This document shows positions 2,027 through 45,805 of a stretch of DNA of 61,544 nucleotides, piece after piece. Origin of the DNA: a virus (taxonomy: Duplodnaviria > Caudoviricetes). The notes under the pieces are model-generated. The model saw nothing but the letters and a program-made list of their open reading frames with translations, was not told where the DNA came from and did not search any database. How positions within the stretch are numbered: the first letter of the stretch is position 1; each line of letters starts with the position of its first letter. The stretch lies in IMG/VR virus record IMGVR_UViG_3300037010_000926, positions 1-61,544 of that record; one strand, written 5' to 3'. The position numbers and the translations under genes are program-made.

Positions 2027-2370
2027 CCATGCAACGACGCAGTTTCCTCGGTGCCATGCTGGCTGCAGCCGCCGCGCCGGCCATCATCACCACGCCAGGC
2101 CTGCTGATGCCAGTCAAGAAGCTGGTGGTGCCGGGCAACATCCTCATCGGCCAGACCCAGCTCGACTGGCTCGCTTGGGTGGCCCGCAATGGCCAGGTGT
2201 GGATGAGCGAGTCTGGCCGGATTGAGCGGGTGGTGACCCGCGACGAGACGCGCCACGGCGGGCTCATCGCGGTGGACAGCACGTTCTACGACGGCTACGC
2301 CTGGTCCATCGACGAGAAGGGCGACATACGTGCCCAGAACATCCCATTCGCCCTATGGGAGGTTGCATGA
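2023..2370 (+). CDS. Hypothetical protein with twin-arginine (Tat)-like N-terminus
   Basis: MQRRSFLGAMLAAAAAPA; GGAGG RBS. Confidence 0.7.
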   Translation: MTMQRRSFLGAMLAAAAAPAIITTPGLLMPVKKLVVPGNILIGQTQLDWLAWVARNGQVWMSESGRIERVVTRDETRHGGLIAVDSTFYDGYAWSIDEKGDIRAQNIPFALWEVA

Positions 2371-2738
2371 CCCAGAAGTGGATGGTTACCCAGGATCCCA
2401 AGTCGCTGCGCCGCTTGGGCAAGCTGTCCGAGGAGCTGGGCGAGCTGCTGGCCGTGATCGGCCGCACCGTGATCCAGGGCATCGACGGGGTGGACCCAGC
2501 AACCAAACAGGTCAACCGCCTGCGCCTGCAGAACGAGATGGCCGACGTGCTGGCCCAGCTCCAGTTGACAGCCGAGCACTTCGACCTGGACGCCAAGGCG
2601 GCGAGCGAGCGAGTCGCAGCCAAGCTGGTGCTGATGGCCGAGTGGGAAGCCTTCTTTGGGGAGTCCCCAGTGCAGACCGCCGATCCTCATGGCCACTGGA
2701 ATAAGCCGCTGGCTGGCCAGCCACAGGAGACGGCATGA
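2367..2738 (+). CDS. MazG-like nucleotide pyrophosphohydrolase domain protein
   Basis: KLSEELGELL...LQNEMADVL (EExxE...ExxD). Confidence 0.7.
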   Translation: MTQKWMVTQDPKSLRRLGKLSEELGELLAVIGRTVIQGIDGVDPATKQVNRLRLQNEMADVLAQLQLTAEHFDLDAKAASERVAAKLVLMAEWEAFFGESPVQTADPHGHWNKPLAGQPQETA

Positions 2739-3454
2739 CTACCTGGGCTGACGAGTACGTGACGCAACTGGACGACTGCGAGCGGCGCAGCGAAAGGCTT
2801 TCCGACTGGGAATGCCAGTTGGGCGTCAGCGCTTACCGCCGCATCGCCGCTCTACCCAAGTTTGTAGCGTCAGGCCGGCAGCGGCAGCCTTTGCAAGCCA
2901 TTCGGCCTTGTCTGCCGGCGTCAACTTCAGTTGCACCCTGGCCGTTTTGCCTGCGCCATCGGGCAGGGGCTTGCGCCCAGGCTTGGCTTTCTCCGGGGCT
3001 TGCATCAGCCGTACACCCCGATGAGTTCCATCAGGCCCTGCTTCGTGAACAAGCCGTGCTTGCCTTCGACCTTGTACGCGGTCGCGCCGTTGACTTTGCT
3101 TGCCGACTTCGTGACAACCAGGCCAGCTTTCTTCGCGTCAGCCAGGACAACAGCGATGGTGGGTGCGTTCATGTTTCTCTCCGGTGGGTTGCTGCGGCGT
3201 CTTGCTGCAGTGGTGTTAATGTACTGCCAAAAATGCGTCGTGTCAAGCGTTATCGTACTGCCAGAAATGTAAAGTTGCAGCGCTCCGGCAAGAGCCGCCA
3301 AACCACAGCTCAGCCGGACTTGCCTGGCGGCAAGCCGGCTAGCATGCCGTTCGTTGACTCGCTGCGGCGCCAGATCACCGAGGGCCGCCGTCCAAGCGTC
3401 AAGCAGACCGAGACGCTGGGTAATGCGTGGGAGAAGGCGACCGCACGCGGTTGA
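2735..3454 (+). CDS. Small phage protein (62 aa when empty) interrupted in frame by a 531-bp attC cassette
   Basis: Removing 2819-3349 gives MTTWADEYVTQLDDCERRSERLSDWECQFVDSLRRQITEGRRPSVKQTETLGNAWEKATARG. Confidence 0.75.
   Translation: MTTWADEYVTQLDDCERRSERLSDWECQLGVSAYRRIAALPKFVASGRQRQPLQAIRPCLPASTSVAPWPFCLRHRAGACAQAWLSPGLASAVHPDEFHQALLREQAVLAFDLVRGRAVDFACRLRDNQASFLRVSQDNSDGGCVHVSLRWVAAASCCSGVNVLPKMRRVKRYRTARNVKLQRSGKSRQTTAQPDLPGGKPASMPFVDSLRRQITEGRRPSVKQTETLGNAWEKATARG
2826..3005 (-). CDS. Ribbon-helix-helix-like DNA-binding protein, 59 aa (not in the ORF track)
   Basis: MQAPEKAKPGRKPLPDGAGKTARVQLKLTPADKAEWLAKAAAAGLTLQTWVERRCGGKR; TGATG overlap with the upstream ORF. Confidence 0.7.
   Translation of the reverse strand: MQAPEKAKPGRKPLPDGAGKTARVQLKLTPADKAEWLAKAAAAGLTLQTWVERRCGGKR
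3005..3172 (-). CDS. Small hypothetical protein (55 aa), first gene of the cassette operon
   Basis: MNAPTIAVVLADAKKAG...; GGAG RBS; downstream of a consensus promoter. Confidence 0.7.
   Translation of the reverse strand: MNAPTIAVVLADAKKAGLVVTKSASKVNGATAYKVEGKHGLFTKQGLMELIGVYG
3218..3246 (-). promoter_or_regulatory. Sigma70 promoter of the cassette operon with direct-repeat operator
   Basis: TTGACA-N17-TACATT on the minus strand; GTACTGCCARAAATG at 3221-3235 and 3255-3269. Confidence 0.8.
3297..3355 (+). other. attC site of the solo cassette
   Basis: R'' GCCAAAC, arms CTCAGCCGGAC / GCCGGCTAGC, inner stem TTGCC-TGGC-GGCAA, R' GTTCGTT. Confidence 0.75.
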
Positions 3455-3459
3455 CACCC

Positions 3460-4323
3460 ATGCCAGGCAGTCCCAAGAAACGAGCCCGACGCCTTGCTGC
3501 AGCAGCAGCAAGCGAGGGCGCAGCTACACCTGTAGCGGCAAGTGACCCCCGTGAAGGGGTGAAGTCCTCACCGGACGGATTGTTGGACGGTGAGGCGGGT
3601 TCTTCCCCGGAGTGGGTTCCCGGGGCGGACGAGGCGAAGCCGAGGGCAGCACACAAGGCCAAGCCGAAGGGGACCGCAGCTCGATTGGTCGAGCAGGGCG
3701 CAGCAGTACGCGCCAAGGGTGCAGGTTCGATGCCTGCCGGTCCCGCCCCCAAACCCAAGGCGAACAAGGGTAAGGGTAAGACAGCGCCCCAGGATGAGCC
3801 CGAGGCGGTGGACGCGGACCCCCACACGCACGCACAGGCGAGCGCGCATGACGCGCCCCCGCGCGAGACAGCCCTGGTCTTGGCCTTCACCAGCAACAGG
3901 AAGCCAGGCCAGACGCTGGACCTGTCGGCCGAGTGGCCACAACTGCTTGACGCCCTGCATGAAGGGGAGTGGCTGGGCAAGCTGTGCCAGGCCATGAAAC
4001 TCAAGGTGAGGGAGGTCACTGACTGGATCCTGGCAGAGCCCTCGCGTGTGCGCGCGTATGACCTGGCGCTGGAGATGTCGGCCGAGGCCTTGCTGCAGAA
4101 GGCCACCGAGGCGTTGGACGGCGCCACGGTGACGACCACGGCCAAGGCCAGTGCCCAGGCTCACCACTTCCGCTGGCTGGCCAGCAAACGCAACGCGGCG
4201 AAGTTCGGCGACAAGCTGGACCTGACCAGCGGCAACAAGCCACTGGCACCGCGCACCCAAGCCGAGATCGACGCCGAGCTATTGGCCTTGGCCAACAAGG
4301 CACACAAGGGGAACCGAGCATGA
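3460..4323 (+). CDS. terS: Terminase small subunit with long low-complexity N-terminus
   Basis: C-terminal RWLASKRNAAKFGDKLDLTS typical of Sf6-like TerS; upstream of TerL. Confidence 0.75.
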   Translation: MPGSPKKRARRLAAAAASEGAATPVAASDPREGVKSSPDGLLDGEAGSSPEWVPGADEAKPRAAHKAKPKGTAARLVEQGAAVRAKGAGSMPAGPAPKPKANKGKGKTAPQDEPEAVDADPHTHAQASAHDAPPRETALVLAFTSNRKPGQTLDLSAEWPQLLDALHEGEWLGKLCQAMKLKVREVTDWILAEPSRVRAYDLALEMSAEALLQKATEALDGATVTTTAKASAQAHHFRWLASKRNAAKFGDKLDLTSGNKPLAPRTQAEIDAELLALANKAHKGNRA

Positions 4324-33900: not shown

Positions 33901-36900
33901 ACCGAGGCGGTGCGCCTGATGTACCCGGACGCCACCCCTAACGAGGTGGCCATGGAGACGCTGGCCAGGGCTGCTGAGATGGGCATCAAGCCCGGCCTGG
34001 TCGATTCGCTGGTCACCGCCGTCCGCCAGGCGCTGCGCCCGCTGCTGAACAAGCTGGGCATCAAGCTGGCCTTCAGCCGGGCCGAGATCCTGAGCCTGGT
34101 GCAGGCCGCCCGCAAGCATGTCCAGGAGCGTGCCAACAAGGTGCTGTCCAAAAACCAGGCCGCCAAGGTCAGCGAGATCCAGGGCGACACCCAGGTCGCG
34201 TCCCAGCGCGCACCCAAGGACGACAAGGTGGCCATCAACCTGTCGGCCGCAACCGACACCATCCCGGGGCTCAAGCAGGCCCGGGAGCGGGCCAATGCCG
34301 GCGTGCCTGGCGCAGCCGAGCACCTGAACGCCATCGCTAAGAACGCCATCGAGCACCTGACCTCGGGCATCAAGGGTGTCAAGATCGCCTTCCATGACAA
34401 CAAGGGGCTGTACTTCGGCGAGCTGGAACCCAGCCTGGGCATGGAGCTGAGCTTCCCCCCAGAGTCGCGCGGGCAGGTGCTCGCGGCCATGGCGCGTTTC
34501 GCCGATAATTTCAACCAGCAGCAGATCCATGTGCTGCAACCCGCCAAGGAGATCGAGGGCACCACCCACCCTGACGGATCCTTCAACACCGTGGTGCGGC
34601 GCATCGACCTGGCCAAACCACTGGAGCGCAGCCGCGTCCAGCAGGTGATTGACGAGTCCGGTCTGGGTGGCTTGAACTTCAGCGGCAAACACATTGAGGC
34701 CTACTATGTCGGCGACCCCGAAAAATCAGACGCCATCACCGAGTTCGAGCACGGATTCGACCGAGCAGTTGCCGCTGTTGGCGCAGATGGCGCGAGCACA
34801 CGACGAGCGGTTGCGCGCCTCTGGCGTTACGGTGAACCTGGAGACGCCAGCGACCGAGGAGTCATCCCCTACGCAGACATTGCGGGCGATGTTCGTCCCC
34901 GGCAAGCGCTCGCCAGCGAAACCGCCAAGCGGGTCGCCCAGCAGCTCCACGGGCAAGAAGTAAAGCCGGCCGACACCCGCGAGATCACGCCCGAGCAGCG
35001 CAAGCTGCATAAGCGCATCGCCGCCGACTACGAGGCGATGCCGCAGGATGACCTGGCCAACCCGCTGGTGCGCAAGGCCTACGCCGCGTTGGGCAAGGAG
35101 GTCAAGCGTCAGTACGATGCGCTGCCCATCAAGGTCGAGGTCTACAAGGGTGACGGTGAGCCCTACGCCAATTCCCAGGCCATGCGTCAGGACGTGGCTG
35201 ACCACAACCACCTGTTCATCTACGGCACCGACAAGGACAGCTTCGGCCCGCCCGGCGTCAAGTACGACAACCACCCACTGCTCAAGGCCTCGGGGCGCAA
35301 GGACATCAACGGTGTCCCGCTGCTCAACAACGACTTGCTGCGGGCGGTGCACGACTACTTCGCCCACAACGTCAGCGATGCCCAGTTCGGCCCCAAGGGG
35401 GAGGAGGCCGCCTGGCGCAACCACATGGCCATGACCAACGATCCGCTGGCCCGCTGGGCGCTGACCAGCGAGACGCGGGGCCAGAACTCCTGGGTGAATT
35501 TCAGCGGTGACCGCACGGGTGAGCGCGGCGCCGGCCCGCTGATCGAACGTGGCTTTGCCGAGCAGAAGGTGGGCCTGCTGCCCATCGAGCACGCCATGAC
35601 CGGGGACGCTTCGGTGGACGCCGGGATGCGTGAGCTGGAGCGCTCGCTGCCGGCCAAGGACAAGCAGGGCTCGCTGGGCAAGACGGTCGAGTCGCGTGGC
35701 GCCAAGGACCGCGAGGAGTACGACGCCTTCAACCTGGACCGCGATCTCACCGATAAGGTCAAGGACAAGAAGCCAGGCCTGTCCAAAGACGACAAGATCG
35801 CGCTGCAATCCGAGCTGCAAGCCCAACAGTCGGGCTTCAACGACATGGACCTGGCACGCCAGGCCGCCAAGGATGTGCAGCAGATCAGCGACGACAAGAT
35901 CGCTGCGATGGGCGTGCACGCTGAGGACGCCTTTCCGAAGCTCAAGTTCACCAAGAGCAAGGACGGAGACGAATACGAGAAGTGGACCGCGCCGCTGTGG
36001 ATCCAGGGTCACCCCGACGAGGGGCAGATCATCCAGCGGATGGGCAAGAAGTCCTGGAATGCTGCGCCACCCACTCTCCTGGGCGCTGGCCATGCACTGA
36101 GCCTGCTGGGGCTTGAGACGGTCAAGGCGGGCCAAGCGTACATCCAGCGCATTGCCGCCTCGGTCGAATTGTTCCGGCGTGGCTATGACCTGTTGAGCAG
36201 CGTGGACAGCAAAGCGGTGACCCGGCTGACCAAGGCCTGGCGCCAGATCGCAGCCAACCGGGGTGCCTTCGAGTTTTCCGGCAGGATGTCGCAGGCTGAG
36301 GGCAGCACCACGCTGGAAGTGATGAACGACGTGGGCGAACAGTTGCTGCTGGGGACCGGGTACAGGCTCAATGTTGAGCGTGCAGGCTCGCATCACTTCG
36401 AGGTGACCATCCGCGACCTCAAAGGGGTGACTCACGAGGCCAGTTTGGAGCACCGTGGCGCGGGCGCACATGCCAACTTCGTGGTCCACGCTGCCGGCCT
36501 GGATCGCGGCACTGGCGCTGGCAAGGTGCTGTACCAGTTCGCTCAGGCGGTAGCTGACGAGTACCACATGAAGATCCTGCCTGACCCCAACGGGTTGACC
36601 GGCGTGAACACCTACCGGCGCACCGAGCAGATGTTCAGCGGCGCAGCCAGGCTAGGCAAGTCCGGGCCGATGCAGCCTGGCGTTGGCCAACGCATCTACG
36701 GCTGGGACAGCAAGGCCACCACGGCCAAAGCGCACGAGGCAAACTTCGCGCGCCTGGCGTTGGCCATCAAGCGCAACGTGGGTGAGCTGGTCCCGGAGTT
36801 TCGCGCGGGCGACATCCACTACGACCCCACCAAGGATGTGTTCACCCAGGACGGCAAGGACGCCGAGCCGCTTGTCAAGGAGATCCTGGCCAGGCCCGAC

Positions 36901-42068: not shown

Positions 42069-42149
42069 GCATAACCTGGTCAATCTTGGTCTGACGCCCG
42101 GGGCGGCGACGTGTTACACAACAGGGTTGTCGTAGAACTTGTGTTAGGC
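42069..42149 (+). other. attC-like site 1 (degenerate arms; left boundary)
   Basis: GCATAAC ... GTTAGGC with weak L-box pairing. Confidence 0.45.
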
Positions 42150-42150
42150 C

Positions 42151-42414
42151 CTAGAGCCCGTTTCGCAGTTCGGCCACGATAGGGTCAATCTGCTGGCGGT
42201 TGTAGTCGTTGCGGTGCCACTCCACGATCTGCACTGCCCGCGCCTTGCACCGCTCGCGCTCTGCGGCAACTGCTGCGTCGAGCGCGGAGCGCATGTCTCT
42301 TTCCCATGCCGGATAAGTTCCATGCTCGATAGCCATCCCCCACTTCTGGCTGAACTCCACTACTGGGCCTAACAGGTCGTTCGAGGCCACAGCCTTCGGT
42401 ACGTTGTCGTTCAT
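42151..42414 (-). CDS. Cassette 1 hypothetical protein
   Basis: RBS GAAAGGA and ATG lie inside attC2; AVAAERERC motif. Confidence 0.75.
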   Translation of the reverse strand: MNDNVPKAVASNDLLGPVVEFSQKWGMAIEHGTYPAWERDMRSALDAAVAAERERCKARAVQIVEWHRNDYNRQQIDPIVAELRNGL

Positions 42415-42456
42415 CGTTAGTCCTTTCGAGGCTGGGCCTCAACTCCGAAGTTGGGC
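42367..42456 (+). other. attC site 2
   Basis: GCCTAAC-AGGTC-GTTCGAGGCC...GGCCTCAAC-TCCGAA-GTTGGGC. Confidence 0.9.
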
Positions 42457-42665
42457 GTCTTGCTGCACGCCGCCGCCGGGTATTCCAGCGCATCGGTCGG
42501 GTGGTACAGGTGAGATCGCTTGCCGCCAGGAATCCACAGCCGCAAGTACTGGCCGCGTGAACCGACGATGCGCGCTTGAATGCGCGCGCCGTCACCGACA
42601 ATCGTGACGGTCATTCCGCGCTTGGCCGGAACCTTGTAGGCTCTGCGGATGTAGTCCATGCTCAT
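42417..42665 (-). CDS. Cassette 2 hypothetical protein b
   Basis: MSMDYIRRAYKVPAKRG...YHPT; C-terminus reads through attC2. Confidence 0.75.
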   Translation of the reverse strand: MSMDYIRRAYKVPAKRGMTVTIVGDGARIQARIVGSRGQYLRLWIPGGKRSHLYHPTDALEYPAAACSKTPNFGVEAQPRKD

Positions 42666-42880
42666 CACCGGCTCCCGCAGCGCCAGCATCCGGCCACCTT
42701 GCCCCAAGCGCACTCGTGGCAACCTGCCGAGCGCACGGGGCCAGCGTTGGGGCCGCTGGAAATCAGGCGCGCTCGCTGTTCAGGCGTCAGCGTGCCGGCG
42801 CTGGCGCGCTGTTCCACCGGCCGCCCAACCCCTCGCTCGAAAGGAGGCGCAACGGCCGGTGTCTCGTTTTCGGGCTTCAT
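42665..42880 (-). CDS. Cassette 2 hypothetical protein a (CxxC...CxxC)
   Basis: ATG inside the attC3 loop after GAAAGGTG. Confidence 0.6.
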   Translation of the reverse strand: MKPENETPAVAPPFERGVGRPVEQRASAGTLTPEQRARLISSGPNAGPVRSAGCHECAWGKVAGCWRCGSR

Positions 42881-42910
42881 CGCGCGCACCTTTCAGCTCG
42901 AACGTTATGC
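42823..42910 (+). other. attC site 3
   Basis: GCCCAAC-CCCTC-GCTCGAAAGG...CCTTTCAGC-TCGAAC-GTTATGC. Confidence 0.9.
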
Positions 42911-43186
42911 AGCACCAACAGCCGCATCCCACTGCCGCCGCATCTTGTCCAGCATCTCCACGTCGTCGCTGGTTAGTGCGTGGCCTGGCTTCTGCGCCAG
43001 GTTGTAGGCAAAGTTCGCCAGCAGTCCGCCGGCTGACCTCGCGACAGCGTGCCGCTTGTCGCACCCAGCTATCGCCAGCGCTTCCACGCGCTGCGCGAAC
43101 GCATGCACCGTTCGGCCGGTCGGTGCGCCTTCCGGGGCGCCTCGCGTCACATCGCGCCATTCCCTGTTCGCCGTCTTTCTGTCCAT
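42905..43186 (-). CDS. Cassette 3 hypothetical protein
   Basis: GAAAGGA RBS; TAA stop supplied by R' GTTA. Confidence 0.75.
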   Translation of the reverse strand: MDRKTANREWRDVTRGAPEGAPTGRTVHAFAQRVEALAIAGCDKRHAVARSAGGLLANFAYNLAQKPGHALTSDDVEMLDKMRRQWDAAVGAA

Positions 43187-43226
43187 CTCAGTTCCTTTCG
43201 TTGTTGCCCAGCATGGGCCGGGCGCT

Positions 43227-43292
43227 GCCTAACATCCGCTCAACCTGACCCATCCGGCAAGCCGGCCGTGCTGGTTAGCTCAATCGTTAGGC
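43227..43292 (+). other. attC site 4
   Basis: GCCTAAC-ATCC-GCTCAACC...CCGGCAAGCCGG...GGTTAGC-TCAATC-GTTAGGC. Confidence 0.92.
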
Positions 43293-43586
43293 CACGCACT
43301 CTGTCGGCGGCGTCACTTCGCGGTTTGCTCTGAGCCTGTCGATGGTGCGCTGAAGATTGACGGCTTCAGCTTCGCGCTTCTCCGCTTGAATTCGCACCGC
43401 ATCGTGTAGCCAGTCGAGCCGACGCCCCAGGCCCTCTACGATGTTGTTCGCGTTTTCACGCGCATACGATCCCGGCTCCAACAGTTGCGCCATGCTGCTC
43501 ACGGCAAACTTGAGGCGGTCAAGCTCAGAGAGCACTTCATTTGGCCCGTAGAACTCATTCCCGAGGGTTCTGTTTCGCTGCCCCAT
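43287..43586 (-). CDS. Cassette 4 hypothetical coiled-coil protein
   Basis: GAAAGGA RBS; TAA stop supplied by R'. Confidence 0.7.
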   Translation of the reverse strand: MGQRNRTLGNEFYGPNEVLSELDRLKFAVSSMAQLLEPGSYARENANNIVEGLGRRLDWLHDAVRIQAEKREAEAVNLQRTIDRLRANREVTPPTECVA

Positions 43587-43609
43587 CTGCTTCCTTTCCG
43601 GCCAACGTG

Positions 43610-43696
43610 GCCTAACTGGTAGTTGCATCGGACCCGCATCGCGGGCATTGGTTACTCGGTCGGGTCAGCGGCGGGCCGCTGAACTCCACGTTATCC
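43610..43696 (+). other. attC site 5
   Basis: GCCTAAC...GTTGCATCGGACCCGC...GCGGGCCGCTGAAC-TCCAC-GTTATCC. Confidence 0.85.
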
Positions 43697-44137
43697 AGAC
43701 ACCAATACCGGCTCGTCATCGGCTCCAGCGCTTTGCGGGGCCTTGGTGGTGTCCACGTCAAAGGCCAGCCGCATGAACCGCGCCGCCGCAGCATTGGCCG
43801 CGTCGTGCGGCGCCCCCTCGTCCATCATCGAAACCGCGACGTTGCAATGCCAAGTCCACGCATAGTGCGGGTCGTCACGCATCGCGCTCTTGATGATGTT
43901 CATGGTTTCGCCGCACGGTGAGGCTGCCCTGCCAGGTCTGCACCGTGCAGGCCACTGGAAGAAAGGATCGCAGGCCTGGTCCACGCCGCGCAGCGTGAGA
44001 AACGCTTTCACGGCATCGGCGGCTGGTGCTGCGTCGTCGGTGGCTGAAAGCGTGATGCGCTCATCGCGGGTTGTCAAAAAACCGGCAAAGTCGTAGATCG
44101 CGCCAGAAACAATATGGTCAAGGCTTTCAATGCTCAT
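43691..44137 (-). CDS. Cassette 5 hypothetical protein (two-domain appearance)
   Basis: SGAIYDFAGFLTTR and YAWTWHCNVAVSMMDEG blocks; stop in R'. Confidence 0.75.
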   Translation of the reverse strand: MSIESLDHIVSGAIYDFAGFLTTRDERITLSATDDAAPAADAVKAFLTLRGVDQACDPFFQWPARCRPGRAASPCGETMNIIKSAMRDDPHYAWTWHCNVAVSMMDEGAPHDAANAAAARFMRLAFDVDTTKAPQSAGADDEPVLVSG

Positions 44138-44174
44138 TGGATTTCCATTCGCTTGCCAGCATTTACAGGGTGCT

Positions 44175-44235
44175 GGCTAACCCTTCGTTTAAGGCCCGAC
44201 TGCCTTCGGCAGCGGCCTTAACTCAATCGTTCGGC
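44175..44235 (+). other. attC site 6
   Basis: GGCTAAC-CCTTC-GTTTAAGGCC-CGACTGCC-TTC-GGCAGCG-GCCTTAAC-TCAATC-GTTCGGC. Confidence 0.92.
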
Positions 44236-44236
44236 C

Positions 44237-44563
44237 TCACGCGGCGCGGTCCAGCCGCTCAATCTCGGCGACGATCAGCGCGCCAGCCCGCACCAGGTCT
44301 GCACGCGGGTTTTTCGGCTTGAGCCATTGCAAGGACCATCCAGACCAGCGCCAGATCAAACGCTGCAGGTCTGACCCTGCGGTGTAGGGTCCAACGGCAT
44401 ACGATGCGGCGGCAACAGCCATGTTGCCGGCCATGTGCTTGTCATCGTGCTCGGGCGTCCAGCCCTCAACCTCGATCTGCCGTCGCCGCTCGGTAGCAAT
44501 GTCGCGCAGGGCATCCGATCCCCAAGCAATCGGGGGCGGTGCTTCGTGTGTTCCTTGGTCCAT
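44237..44563 (-). CDS. Cassette 6 conserved phage-type hypothetical protein
   Basis: ERRRQIEVEGWTPEHDD...LVRAGALIVAEIERLDR; start inside the attC7 loop. Confidence 0.8.
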   Translation of the reverse strand: MDQGTHEAPPPIAWGSDALRDIATERRRQIEVEGWTPEHDDKHMAGNMAVAAASYAVGPYTAGSDLQRLIWRWSGWSLQWLKPKNPRADLVRAGALIVAEIERLDRAA

Positions 44564-44613
44564 CGTCTTTCCTTTCGTGTCGGCCACAAGCGGGCCTAAT
44601 TCAAACGTTGGGC
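44514..44613 (+). other. attC site 7 (left arm degenerate)
   Basis: Right arm GGGCCTAAT-TCAAAC-GTTGGGC intact; R'' eroded to TCCGATC. Confidence 0.6.
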
Positions 44614-44617
44614 AGCA

Positions 44618-44803
44618 TCAGTCTTCGGTGCTGTCGCAGCTTAGGCACTCAACGTCGTCGCCCATGTCGCACATGCAGCACTTCTCTGCACCGCAATGCG
44701 GGCATTCATCAAGTCCCTGTGGCTCGTTCGGTTTGTTGTGCTTTCGGTCGTGCGTAGTAGCGCCACAGCTTGGGCATTCATCATCGGTTTCGCGGTAGTT
44801 CAT
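44618..44803 (-). CDS. Cassette 7 Cys-rich zinc-finger-like protein
   Basis: CPSC, CPHC, CCMC, CLSC. Confidence 0.75.
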   Translation of the reverse strand: MNYRETDDECPSCGATTHDRKHNKPNEPQGLDECPHCGAEKCCMCDMGDDVECLSCDSTED

Positions 44804-44824
44804 GTTTTTCCTTCCGGGCGTGCT

Positions 44825-44884
44825 GCCCAATAGTTCAATCAAGCCGACCTCCCTGCGGTCGGCAACTTATCTCAGGCGTTGTGC
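44825..44884 (+). other. attC site 8
   Basis: GCCCAAT-AGTTC-AATCAAG-CCGACC...GGTCGG-CAACTTATC-TCAGGC-GTTGTGC. Confidence 0.88.
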
Positions 44885-45357
44885 CCTACTACCACGAAGC
44901 CGAGGCCGCTTTGCCTGAGTGCGTCCAGGTTCGCGCTTCCGTAGGCCACCAGTGCTATCGGGGCGCCGCTGTTGAAATCCGCCCGCCGTCCGTCCACGTA
45001 GTGGAAGTGCGGGCGCCCTTTGAGGAACAGCACGCCGTCTGCCGCTCCCCAGATCGTTTCGTAAAACATCGCCGTCTCGGTGCGCGCCGGAATCAAGGCC
45101 ACCCCGTTCCCGTGGTCGCGCATCTTCCGAAGCCACTTCACGGCCTCGCGCCCGAATGGTGGGTTGCACCACACGCGGCCAAACCACGGCAACGCCAGCC
45201 CATCGTCGTGCGCCGTGTAGTGCTGTGCCGCCGTTTCCCAAGGCCGCACCACTGGCGCGCACGGGTCAAGATCGAAGGCGCCTAGCGCCCGCAGGATCTC
45301 CGGTGGAGTCAGCCATTCGTCGTGTCCGCCATTCTTCTGGTGCGCGCTCAAACCCAT
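44872..45357 (-). CDS. Cassette 8 phage-type DNA N6-adenine methyltransferase
   Basis: DEWLTPP, FDLDPCA, DDGL, VWCNPPFG, ALIPART, LKGRPHF. Confidence 0.88.
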   Translation of the reverse strand: MGLSAHQKNGGHDEWLTPPEILRALGAFDLDPCAPVVRPWETAAQHYTAHDDGLALPWFGRVWCNPPFGREAVKWLRKMRDHGNGVALIPARTETAMFYETIWGAADGVLFLKGRPHFHYVDGRRADFNSGAPIALVAYGSANLDALRQSGLGFVVVGHNA

Positions 45358-45376
45358 CTCACTTGTCCCCCGTGTG

Positions 45377-45446
45377 GCACAACCTGTCGCGCGAAGGGAC
45401 GCGCCGCGATGAAGCTGCGTCGCGCCCCTCCACTCTGTCGGTAGGC
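45377..45446 (+). other. attC site 9 (R' mutated to GGTAGGC)
   Basis: GCACAAC...GAAGGGACGCG...CGCGCCCCTCC...GGTAGGC. Confidence 0.75.
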
Positions 45447-45450
45447 CCGC

Positions 45451-45687
45451 TCAAGTGAAGGCGCTCCACCCGTTGTCCGGGTCGTACTCGCCGCCGTCCT
45501 CGGACAAGCCGCCTTCCGACTGGAACCAGCCAAGCTCGCACATGCGCTGCTGGTCTGCTGGCGTCAGGGGCTTGTCGGTCTTGTAGGCGTAAAACTGGTC
45601 GTGCTCGGCGCCGATGTGGAAGCCGTCGCCGTCCGTGTAGTACGGGCGCAGCGTGTTCAGGCCGTCAATGAATTTGCTCAGTCTCAT
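45451..45687 (-). CDS. Cassette 9 hypothetical protein
   Basis: GAGG RBS; GAEHDQFY...LGWF. Confidence 0.8.
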   Translation of the reverse strand: MRLSKFIDGLNTLRPYYTDGDGFHIGAEHDQFYAYKTDKPLTPADQQRMCELGWFQSEGGLSEDGGEYDPDNGWSAFT

Positions 45688-45709
45688 GCTTTTCCTCTCC
45701 AGCCCGCAG

Positions 45710-45805
45710 GCCTAACTGGTCGCTCAAGCGGCGCGCTGCCGGCGTGCTGTCGTTGTCCATCATTCCTCCTGTGCGGGCAGCGCCCGCTTAGCTCCAAAGT
45801 TGGGC
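45710..45805 (+). other. attC site 10
   Basis: GCCTAAC-TGGTC-GCTCAAGCGG-CGCGCTGCC...GGCAGCG-CCCGCTTAGC-TCCAAA-GTTGGGC. Confidence 0.92.

Follow-up and report, generated by a model that had tools for sequence, protein, structure and literature searches.

A probable solo integron cassette at a secondary G/TT site within a small accessory gene of an environmental phage

Here we describe an insertion in a phage genome of 61,544 bp, the IMG/VR record IMGVR_UViG_3300037010_000926 (Duplodnaviria; Caudoviricetes), a complete virus genome with direct terminal repeats that was analysed over its whole length and is called the window below. Between genes for a MazG-like pyrophosphohydrolase and a small terminase (TerS), the window carries an uninterrupted open reading frame (ORF) of 239 aa on the plus strand (2735-3454), which ends 5 nt upstream of the terS start codon (3460). 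The original prediction, made from the letters of the DNA, read this ORF as a 62-aa gene split by a single 531-bp integron cassette with one attC site, and the lengths, frames and homolog matches confirm a split of this kind (Table 1). The insert (2819-3349) amounts to 531 nt or 177 codons and contains no stop in the frame of the host gene, compared with two and six stops in the other plus-strand frames. As predicted, the left junction reads GAATGCCAG/TTGGGCGTC and the right junction AGCATGCCG/TTCGTTGAC, where the slash, here and below, marks the joint; the insert boundary is ambiguous within the GTT that is common to both junctions. Rejoining the flanks gives E-C-Q-F-V-D, consistent with the 62-aa family, in which position 28 is variable. 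We consider it likely, with a probability of roughly 0.87, that one integron cassette was inserted by recombination between its attC and a G/TT secondary ('attG'-type) site inside this 62-aa gene, which would be a non-essential accessory gene of the phage.

Table 1. Features of the split gene, the inserted cassette and the flanking genes, in window positions.
Feature	Position	Strand	Remarks
MazG-like pyrophosphohydrolase gene	2355-2738		left neighbour of the split gene
5' part of interrupted 62-aa gene	2735-2818	+	codons 1-28, ending ...DWECQ; matches homolog residues 1-27
Inserted integron gene cassette (probable)	2819-3349	+	531 bp; top strand TTGGGCG...attC...G
Cargo gene 2	2826-3005	-	59-aa ribbon-helix-helix (RHH) protein, NikA-like; stop codon 5 nt from cassette boundary
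Cargo gene 1	3005-3172	-	55-aa protein, no family; stop/start overlap with gene 2
Sigma-70-like promoter (predicted)	3218-3246	-	TTGACA, 17 nt, TACATT
Two 21-nt direct repeats (candidate operator)	3215-3235 and 3249-3269		34 nt apart; flank -35, overlap -10
attC site of the cassette	3297-3355	+	folds; strict descriptor, 9/9 stem pairs
attC R''	3297-3303		GCCAAAC
attC spacer	3304-3307		4 nt
attC L''	3308-3310
attC bulged C	3311
attC stem	3312-3317		6 bp
attC bulged A	3318
attC stem	3319-3324		6 bp
attC loop	3325-3328		4 nt
attC return arms	3329-3340
attC L'	3341-3343
attC spacer	3344-3348		5 nt
attC hybrid R'	3349-3355		GTTCGTT; cleavage G3349/T3350
3' part of interrupted gene	3350-3454	+	codons 29-62 (FVDSLRRQ...ARG) and stop; matches homolog residues 28/29-62
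Sf6-type small terminase gene (TerS)	ATG at 3460		right neighbour of the split gene, followed by the large terminase gene

Comparison of the 239-aa ORF with 1.84 billion representative proteins (phmmer) returned 38 hits, 27 of which matched in two stretches (query residues 1-27 and 204/206-239), many of them being exactly 62 aa long. The inserted 177 residues were covered as part of a gene by none of the 38 hits, the longest of which was 111 aa. The remaining 11 comprised the window's own 73-aa gene call, nine truncated or divergent variants, and P0010, which matches query residues 89-147 in a single stretch and lies antisense to a relative of the 55-aa gene carried by the insert. The 177-aa stretch was also absent from all 14 contiguous homologs (60-65 aa) that were aligned. 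Contiguous 62-aa homologs were therefore recovered as the original prediction had expected, and homologs aligning along all 239 aa, which it had named as counterevidence, did not occur among the 38 hits.

At the DNA level, the contiguous protein is encoded at 79 distinct IMG/VR loci. The uninterrupted site, recognized as W-E-x-x-F, was read 68 times in 66 of these loci (for example as GAC TGG GAA TGC GGG TTC GTG GAC). In a blastn comparison of the window with 83 viral loci, similarity stopped at 2811-2815 and resumed at 3349/3350, and the two halves abutted in 10 of the loci, in line with the empty site that had been expected in relatives. The target core 5'-GWT-3' is present at this point, the flanks reading CAG/.../TTC and relatives with contiguous codons having GGN TTY there. 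Three relatives of the 62-aa protein (P0019, P0025 and P0032) run into unrelated sequence directly after residues 29-31, near the insertion point; this divergence could reflect other insertions, mosaic joints or frameshifts, and the IMG/VR relatives of P0025 are all contiguous.

The attC site at the right end of the insert has a predicted folding energy of -19.9 kcal/mol (z -2.99) and the same canonical layout as aadA-type attC sites. Its bulged bases, C3311 and A3318, lie 6 bp apart on the 5' arm of the top strand, a layout shared by sites a and i of the phage's large attC array (see below) and also seen in eight orthologous sites; the extra bases on this arm therefore fix the orientation of the attC to the top strand. 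Consensus boxes of attC sites are RYYYAAC for R'' and GTTRRRY for R', and the R'' box GCCAAAC agrees with the former at 6/7 positions, as the left-junction R' GTTGGGC does with the latter at 7/7. The complementarity between the R'' region and the left junction was confirmed, with GCCGCCAAAC (3294-3303) pairing with the left-junction 10-mer at 8/10 positions and the 7-nt R'' box pairing at 6/7. The R' at the right junction, GTTCGTT, is formed from the phage codons F-V and occurs in the window copy alone, the eight orthologs having GTT followed by purine-rich R'-like sequence; such a hybrid R' would be the expected product of recombination between an attC and a secondary site.

A strict attC descriptor matched the window five times, at the solo site and at four of the eight array attCs, always on the plus strand. 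Markov-1 control sequences gave 0.10 strict-descriptor hits per sequence, with any hit in 127 of 1334, and the GTT of the descriptor hit is the junction that homology had set independently. Across the nine orthologous sites, 9, 9, 8, 9, 8, 8, 9, 9 and 7 of the nine descriptor pairs are kept, with paired bases varying on both sides (GCT with AGC, GGT with ACC and CAT with ATG; AGCCGG with CCGGCT, AACCGG with CCGGTT, CAACGG with CCGTTG and AAGCGG with CCGCTT). Covariation of this kind in the stem pairs favours an attC hairpin.

The same cassette is also found within other attC arrays, at the metagenome locus L085 and on several IMG/VR contigs. The insert is 82% identical to L085 (4193-3679) over window positions 2818-3337, and their pairwise alignment extends from GTTGGGCGTC to the right-junction GTT. 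The L085 copy extends over 537 nt from G/TT to G/TT, flanked by an attC at 4187-4242 (E 2.4e-8) and by its own attC at 3650-3718 (E 2.6e-7), in an array for which the covariance model R1, built from the eight array attCs of this phage alone, found nine attCs. Relatives of the RHH protein of the insert are encoded at 11 further IMG/VR loci, in five of which homology starts at 2817/2818; in L099 it reaches 3351. The first bases after the G are common to seven copies (the window and six loci), and the DNA upstream of that point is unrelated; in three of these loci it resembles, by eye, the 3' end of another attC. The cassette is preceded by attC hits in L101 and L104, and its own attC was found in L098, L099, L100, L101, L102, L104 and L106. 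At L098:3581-4186, L099:3572-4185 and similar positions, the cassette family retains the RHH gene, the promoter region, the attC and the boundary; the 55-aa-gene stretch has no blastn match in these loci and measures 254 nt in L098 versus 167 nt in the window.

Taken together, the boundaries, the array copies and the hairpin support the prediction that the insert is a single integron-type cassette, with its attC at the right end, that landed at a GTT inside a phage gene, subject to the failure of two covariance models discussed below. The cassette lies 39 kb away from the phage's attC array, the nearest other attC being at 42367, with no gene for an integron integrase (IntI) in the 61.5-kb genome, and the name that suits the element best is SALIN (a single attC without an integron integrase), here in a phage genome. 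Two other classes of element were considered and rejected. An intein, suggested by the in-frame insertion of 177 codons, does not fit the opposite-strand coding or the ends, which in the translation lack intein-like residues; an insertion sequence or miniature inverted-repeat transposable element does not fit ends without terminal inverted repeats and an insert without a transposase.

The cargo of the cassette is a self-promoted two-gene operon, inverted relative to the attC top strand. Its predicted promoter matches the consensus at 10/12 positions and is the one such site in 2600-3600, compared with 0.1 expected in shuffled sequences, and the promoter region is conserved in L085 and L088. 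The 21-nt repeats may form an operator through which the RHH protein would regulate its own operon. This protein matches Pfam PF21983 with E 6.1e-5 and 23.5 bits, under the 27-bit cut-off, which its relative P0116 passes with 29.9 bits; it has 52 relatives in metagenomes. Of the 60 codons of the RHH gene, 18 differ from L085 synonymously and 6 non-synonymously, and for the 56 codons of the 55-aa gene the figures are 12 and 5, a pattern of purifying selection on both genes.

The 55-aa protein has 40 metagenome relatives (69-96% identity) and none in GTDB genome contigs or IMG/VR. It is modelled as helix-strand-strand-helix (AlphaFold2, mean predicted local distance difference test score 86.8). 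No Pfam, PHROG or NCBIfam family was matched, no PDB sequence hit fell below E 0.2, no Foldseek PDB match reached E<=0.001, and Atlas searches scored below 0.8. Its fold bears a weak likeness to double-stranded RNA-binding and HicA-like domains (E 0.47-2.7), which is a lead at most, and toxin families, HicAB-like or other, gave no assignment, the HicAB entry 6g26 ranking 34th with one chain (E 2.7). That the cargo is a self-regulated, possibly addiction-like or regulatory pair is a guess of low probability. In other loci, the RHH gene and promoter region are kept and the stretch between them differs. At L086:4356-6365, a 54-aa relative of cargo gene 1 has as its neighbour an ORF of 404 aa that, by its sequence, resembles tyrosine recombinases, and is followed by a different 68-aa gene, with no attC there at E<=0.1; cargo gene 1 therefore also occurs outside cassettes.

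In the mechanism that we favour, the cassette would have entered as a circle, its attC would have recombined with the G/TT secondary ('attG'-type) site inside the 62-aa gene, and the reaction would have been catalysed in trans by the integron integrase of a bacterial host, acting on prophage or replicating phage DNA. We infer a host IntI as the probable enzyme because the phage encodes no IntI and the junctions carry the G/TT signature. In E. coli, 5'-GWT-3' sites throughout the genome receive cassettes from IntI1, IntI2 and IntI3, which cut after the G (Loot et al., preprint 10.1101/2022.09.11.507474). The original prediction had spoken of a second, independent IntI-type event far from the array, which might show how phage cassette arrays are seeded; the cassette at G/TT at that distance stands, and the part played by IntI is probable.

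Several observations weigh against this interpretation. With no integron integrase anywhere in the 61.5-kb genome, the phage holds no complete integron and the catalyst has to be inferred. The present R' (3349-3355) pairs with R'' at just 4/7 positions. With filters off, neither R1 nor a second covariance model, R2 (built from 13 attCs of the window and L085, with the ortholog excluded), recognized 3297-3355 at E<=10, and R2 did find four L085 attCs outside its building set (E 0.00029 to 1.4e-6). These models are home-made, with 14 base pairs and much family-specific sequence, and differ from the standard curated attC model; the solo site itself departs from the family in its 5' spacer of 4 nt instead of 5 nt, in lacking the conserved bases beside L' and in its hybrid R'. 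A looser attC descriptor was dropped as evidence, its background being 2.1 hits per control sequence; it also matched 36603-36688 on the minus strand, which we took as chance.

The missing IntI gene could also be read as a sign that a cassette of integron origin entered without this enzyme, through illegitimate or microhomology recombination, a template switch at the hairpin of the attC, or the arm-type integrase of the phage, whose gene adjoins the large attC array. For some phage arrays, off-target homologous or illegitimate recombination at GTTRRRY-like motifs is proposed by Qi et al. (2023, PMC9892861). However, what was gained here is exactly one cassette unit with both ends at the canonical G/TT and no bases gained or lost, which is the signature of an IntI reaction, and this makes entry by any of these routes very unlikely. 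The phage integrase (412 aa; Pfam Arm-DNA-bind_2 and Phage_integrase) is the sole tyrosine recombinase of the genome and scores 20.4 and 11.4 bits against the integron integrase model TIGR02249, far from the cut-off of 265 bits. That there was no insertion at all, the 239-aa ORF being ancestral or the junctions an assembly chimera, is scarcely credible: the long ORF is indeed uninterrupted, but none of the database hits described above spans its middle 177 residues within a gene, the middle is a coding region of the opposite strand in which synonymous changes (30) outweigh non-synonymous ones (11), and both junctions are bridged, with zero differences, by independent contigs of four sequencing runs, two of which are possibly the source of the record.

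Among the contigs of the same four runs, none joins across the insert and the empty site of this very phage was not found, a search in which rare excised forms would escape notice, as contigs cannot reveal them. The element now looks fixed instead of switching. This bears on the further suggestion that the cassette is a reversible switch, with IntI excising and reinserting it and so toggling either the 62-aa gene or the translation that runs into terS, for which we found no supporting evidence and which we regard as improbable. Besides the occupied contigs, the R''/R' complementarity fell from 6/7 to 4/7 after insertion, and the attC covariance models miss the site. Excision at the insertion point has been observed for genome-inserted cassettes in an E. 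coli assay, notably in 2/24 clones (preprint 10.1101/2022.09.11.507474). The other point for a switch, that the insertion is in frame and free of stops, is met by a frame that is nearly intrinsic to the cassette: the L085 copy is likewise a whole number of codons long and meets just one stop in the corresponding frame, and open frames make up 13.7% of the 531-nt frames of this genome. Therefore, the in-frame open state needs little beyond the right codon phase; it may be due to chance, or be mildly favoured because it allows translation to proceed as far as the stop, 5 nt short of the terS start codon.

The large attC array of the phage, read from the sequence and folded, occupies 42143-45805 (roughly 3.7 kb) beside the xis and int genes and consists of eight attCs by covariance model and a 20-nt R''/R' remnant at 44594-44613. 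It starts with GTG/TTAGGC at about 42143, with no attC before it, and this start looks like another secondary-site junction beside xis and int. A long minus-strand ORF fills every array cassette, several of these ORFs starting inside an attC, and the cargo of the array, like that of the solo cassette, seems to run against the attC top strand. The right flank of the array had no viral relatives from which its empty site might have been set. At the IMG/VR loci L098, L099, L101, L104 and L107 there are further long arrays whose attCs belong to this family. A search with R2 (E<=0.1) yielded 45 hits over 11 loci, all of them on a single strand, and 16 lie within the 8 kb of L098. None of the five IMG/VR array records searched, one of them rated 100% complete, contained an integron integrase above the cut-off.

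Both the mechanism and the presence of cassettes in phages were known before, and the surprise for a specialist should be moderate. In 1995, Recchia and Hall reportedly described an aadB cassette inserted at a secondary site of the plasmid RSF1010. As here, a single cassette went in precisely at a GTT-type secondary site that was not part of an integron, and a hybrid site was left behind; that case differs in involving a plasmid and a resistance gene expressed from a plasmid promoter, whereas here the recipient is a phage and the cargo has its own promoter. Sedentary chromosomal integrons carry self-promoted, inverted toxin-antitoxin cassettes, which resemble the cassette described here in the two-gene operon with its own promoter running against the attC top strand and in the small RHH-type partner; in contrast, the 55-aa protein matches no toxin family.

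The closest parallel is found in attG insertions and SALINs as described by Loot et al. (10.1101/2022.09.11.507474), where SALINs are common in bacterial genomes and outnumber, in RefSeq, the attC clusters without an integron integrase (CALINs). These share with our case the single attC, the lack of a nearby integrase, the G/WT core cut after the G, the hybrid R' box and the insertion within coding sequence. They differ in that the target here is a phage accessory gene in a genome that also has a large attC array, and in that the cargo here is inverted and self-promoted, whereas theirs is promoterless and relies on a resident promoter. Also missing here is CRGM, the motif found on the right-hand side of hotspots (positions 6-9), in place of which the target has TGAC (10.1101/2022.09.11.507474).

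On the phage side, Qi et al. (2023, PMC9892861) report 17 CALINs among 10,705 phage genomes under a rule of two or more attCs within 3 kb, show that IntI1 can use phage attCs, and describe DNA methyltransferase cassettes in phage arrays. Both cases have attC sites and cassettes on phages; in the array described here, the cassette at 44872-45357 is a candidate methyltransferase, which it resembles by motif only, and the minimum of two attCs in PMC9892861 left solo cassettes unscored. Our literature search, which covered titles and text passages, found no solo cassette with its empty site inside a phage gene, and Supplementary Tables S1 and S2 of PMC9892861 may list relevant attCs.

What the locus adds is a natural cassette insertion at a secondary G/TT in a phage, resolved to the base pair, with the empty site present in relatives and the donor-type cassette present in arrays. 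It links attG insertions and SALINs in bacterial chromosomes with the attC arrays of phages and suggests that phages could be direct substrates of IntI, in which case they would be both recipients and vehicles of the cassette pool. Given two separate acquisitions in this genome (the array of roughly 3.7 kb and the solo cassette 39 kb away), together with related cassettes of the same boundary in attC arrays on IMG/VR contigs lacking IntI, we tentatively propose, as a possibility that we rate as doubtful, that host IntIs act on phage DNA often enough for regular gene gain in a group of environmental phages. The solo attC could then serve as the landing pad of a second array, and insertions at this point may persist only if they are in frame and stop-free, since these keep ribosomes running to the terS start. 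The locus also offers a small tractable system, with one attC, one defined target and a two-gene cargo that recurs in phage-borne arrays.

Window positions 2300-3900 had no match in the GenBank phage collection (blastn), no viral relatives of TerS were found, and MazG had four distant loci without useful synteny. Ten neighbouring window proteins gave no match at E<=1e-3 (tblastn) in 86 loci with the 62-aa gene, so this gene travels without its neighbours. It lies next to genes for a C5 methylase, a dNMP kinase and an exonuclease in two relatives. Paralogs of the 62-aa gene occur two per phage contig in L006 (3001-3186 and 4218-4420) and L009 (164 and 3070). In run X1, a 1.3-kb contig (record 2) matches window positions 2729-2761 and runs on from there into another homolog of the small gene, and therefore represents a second, related phage in the same sample.

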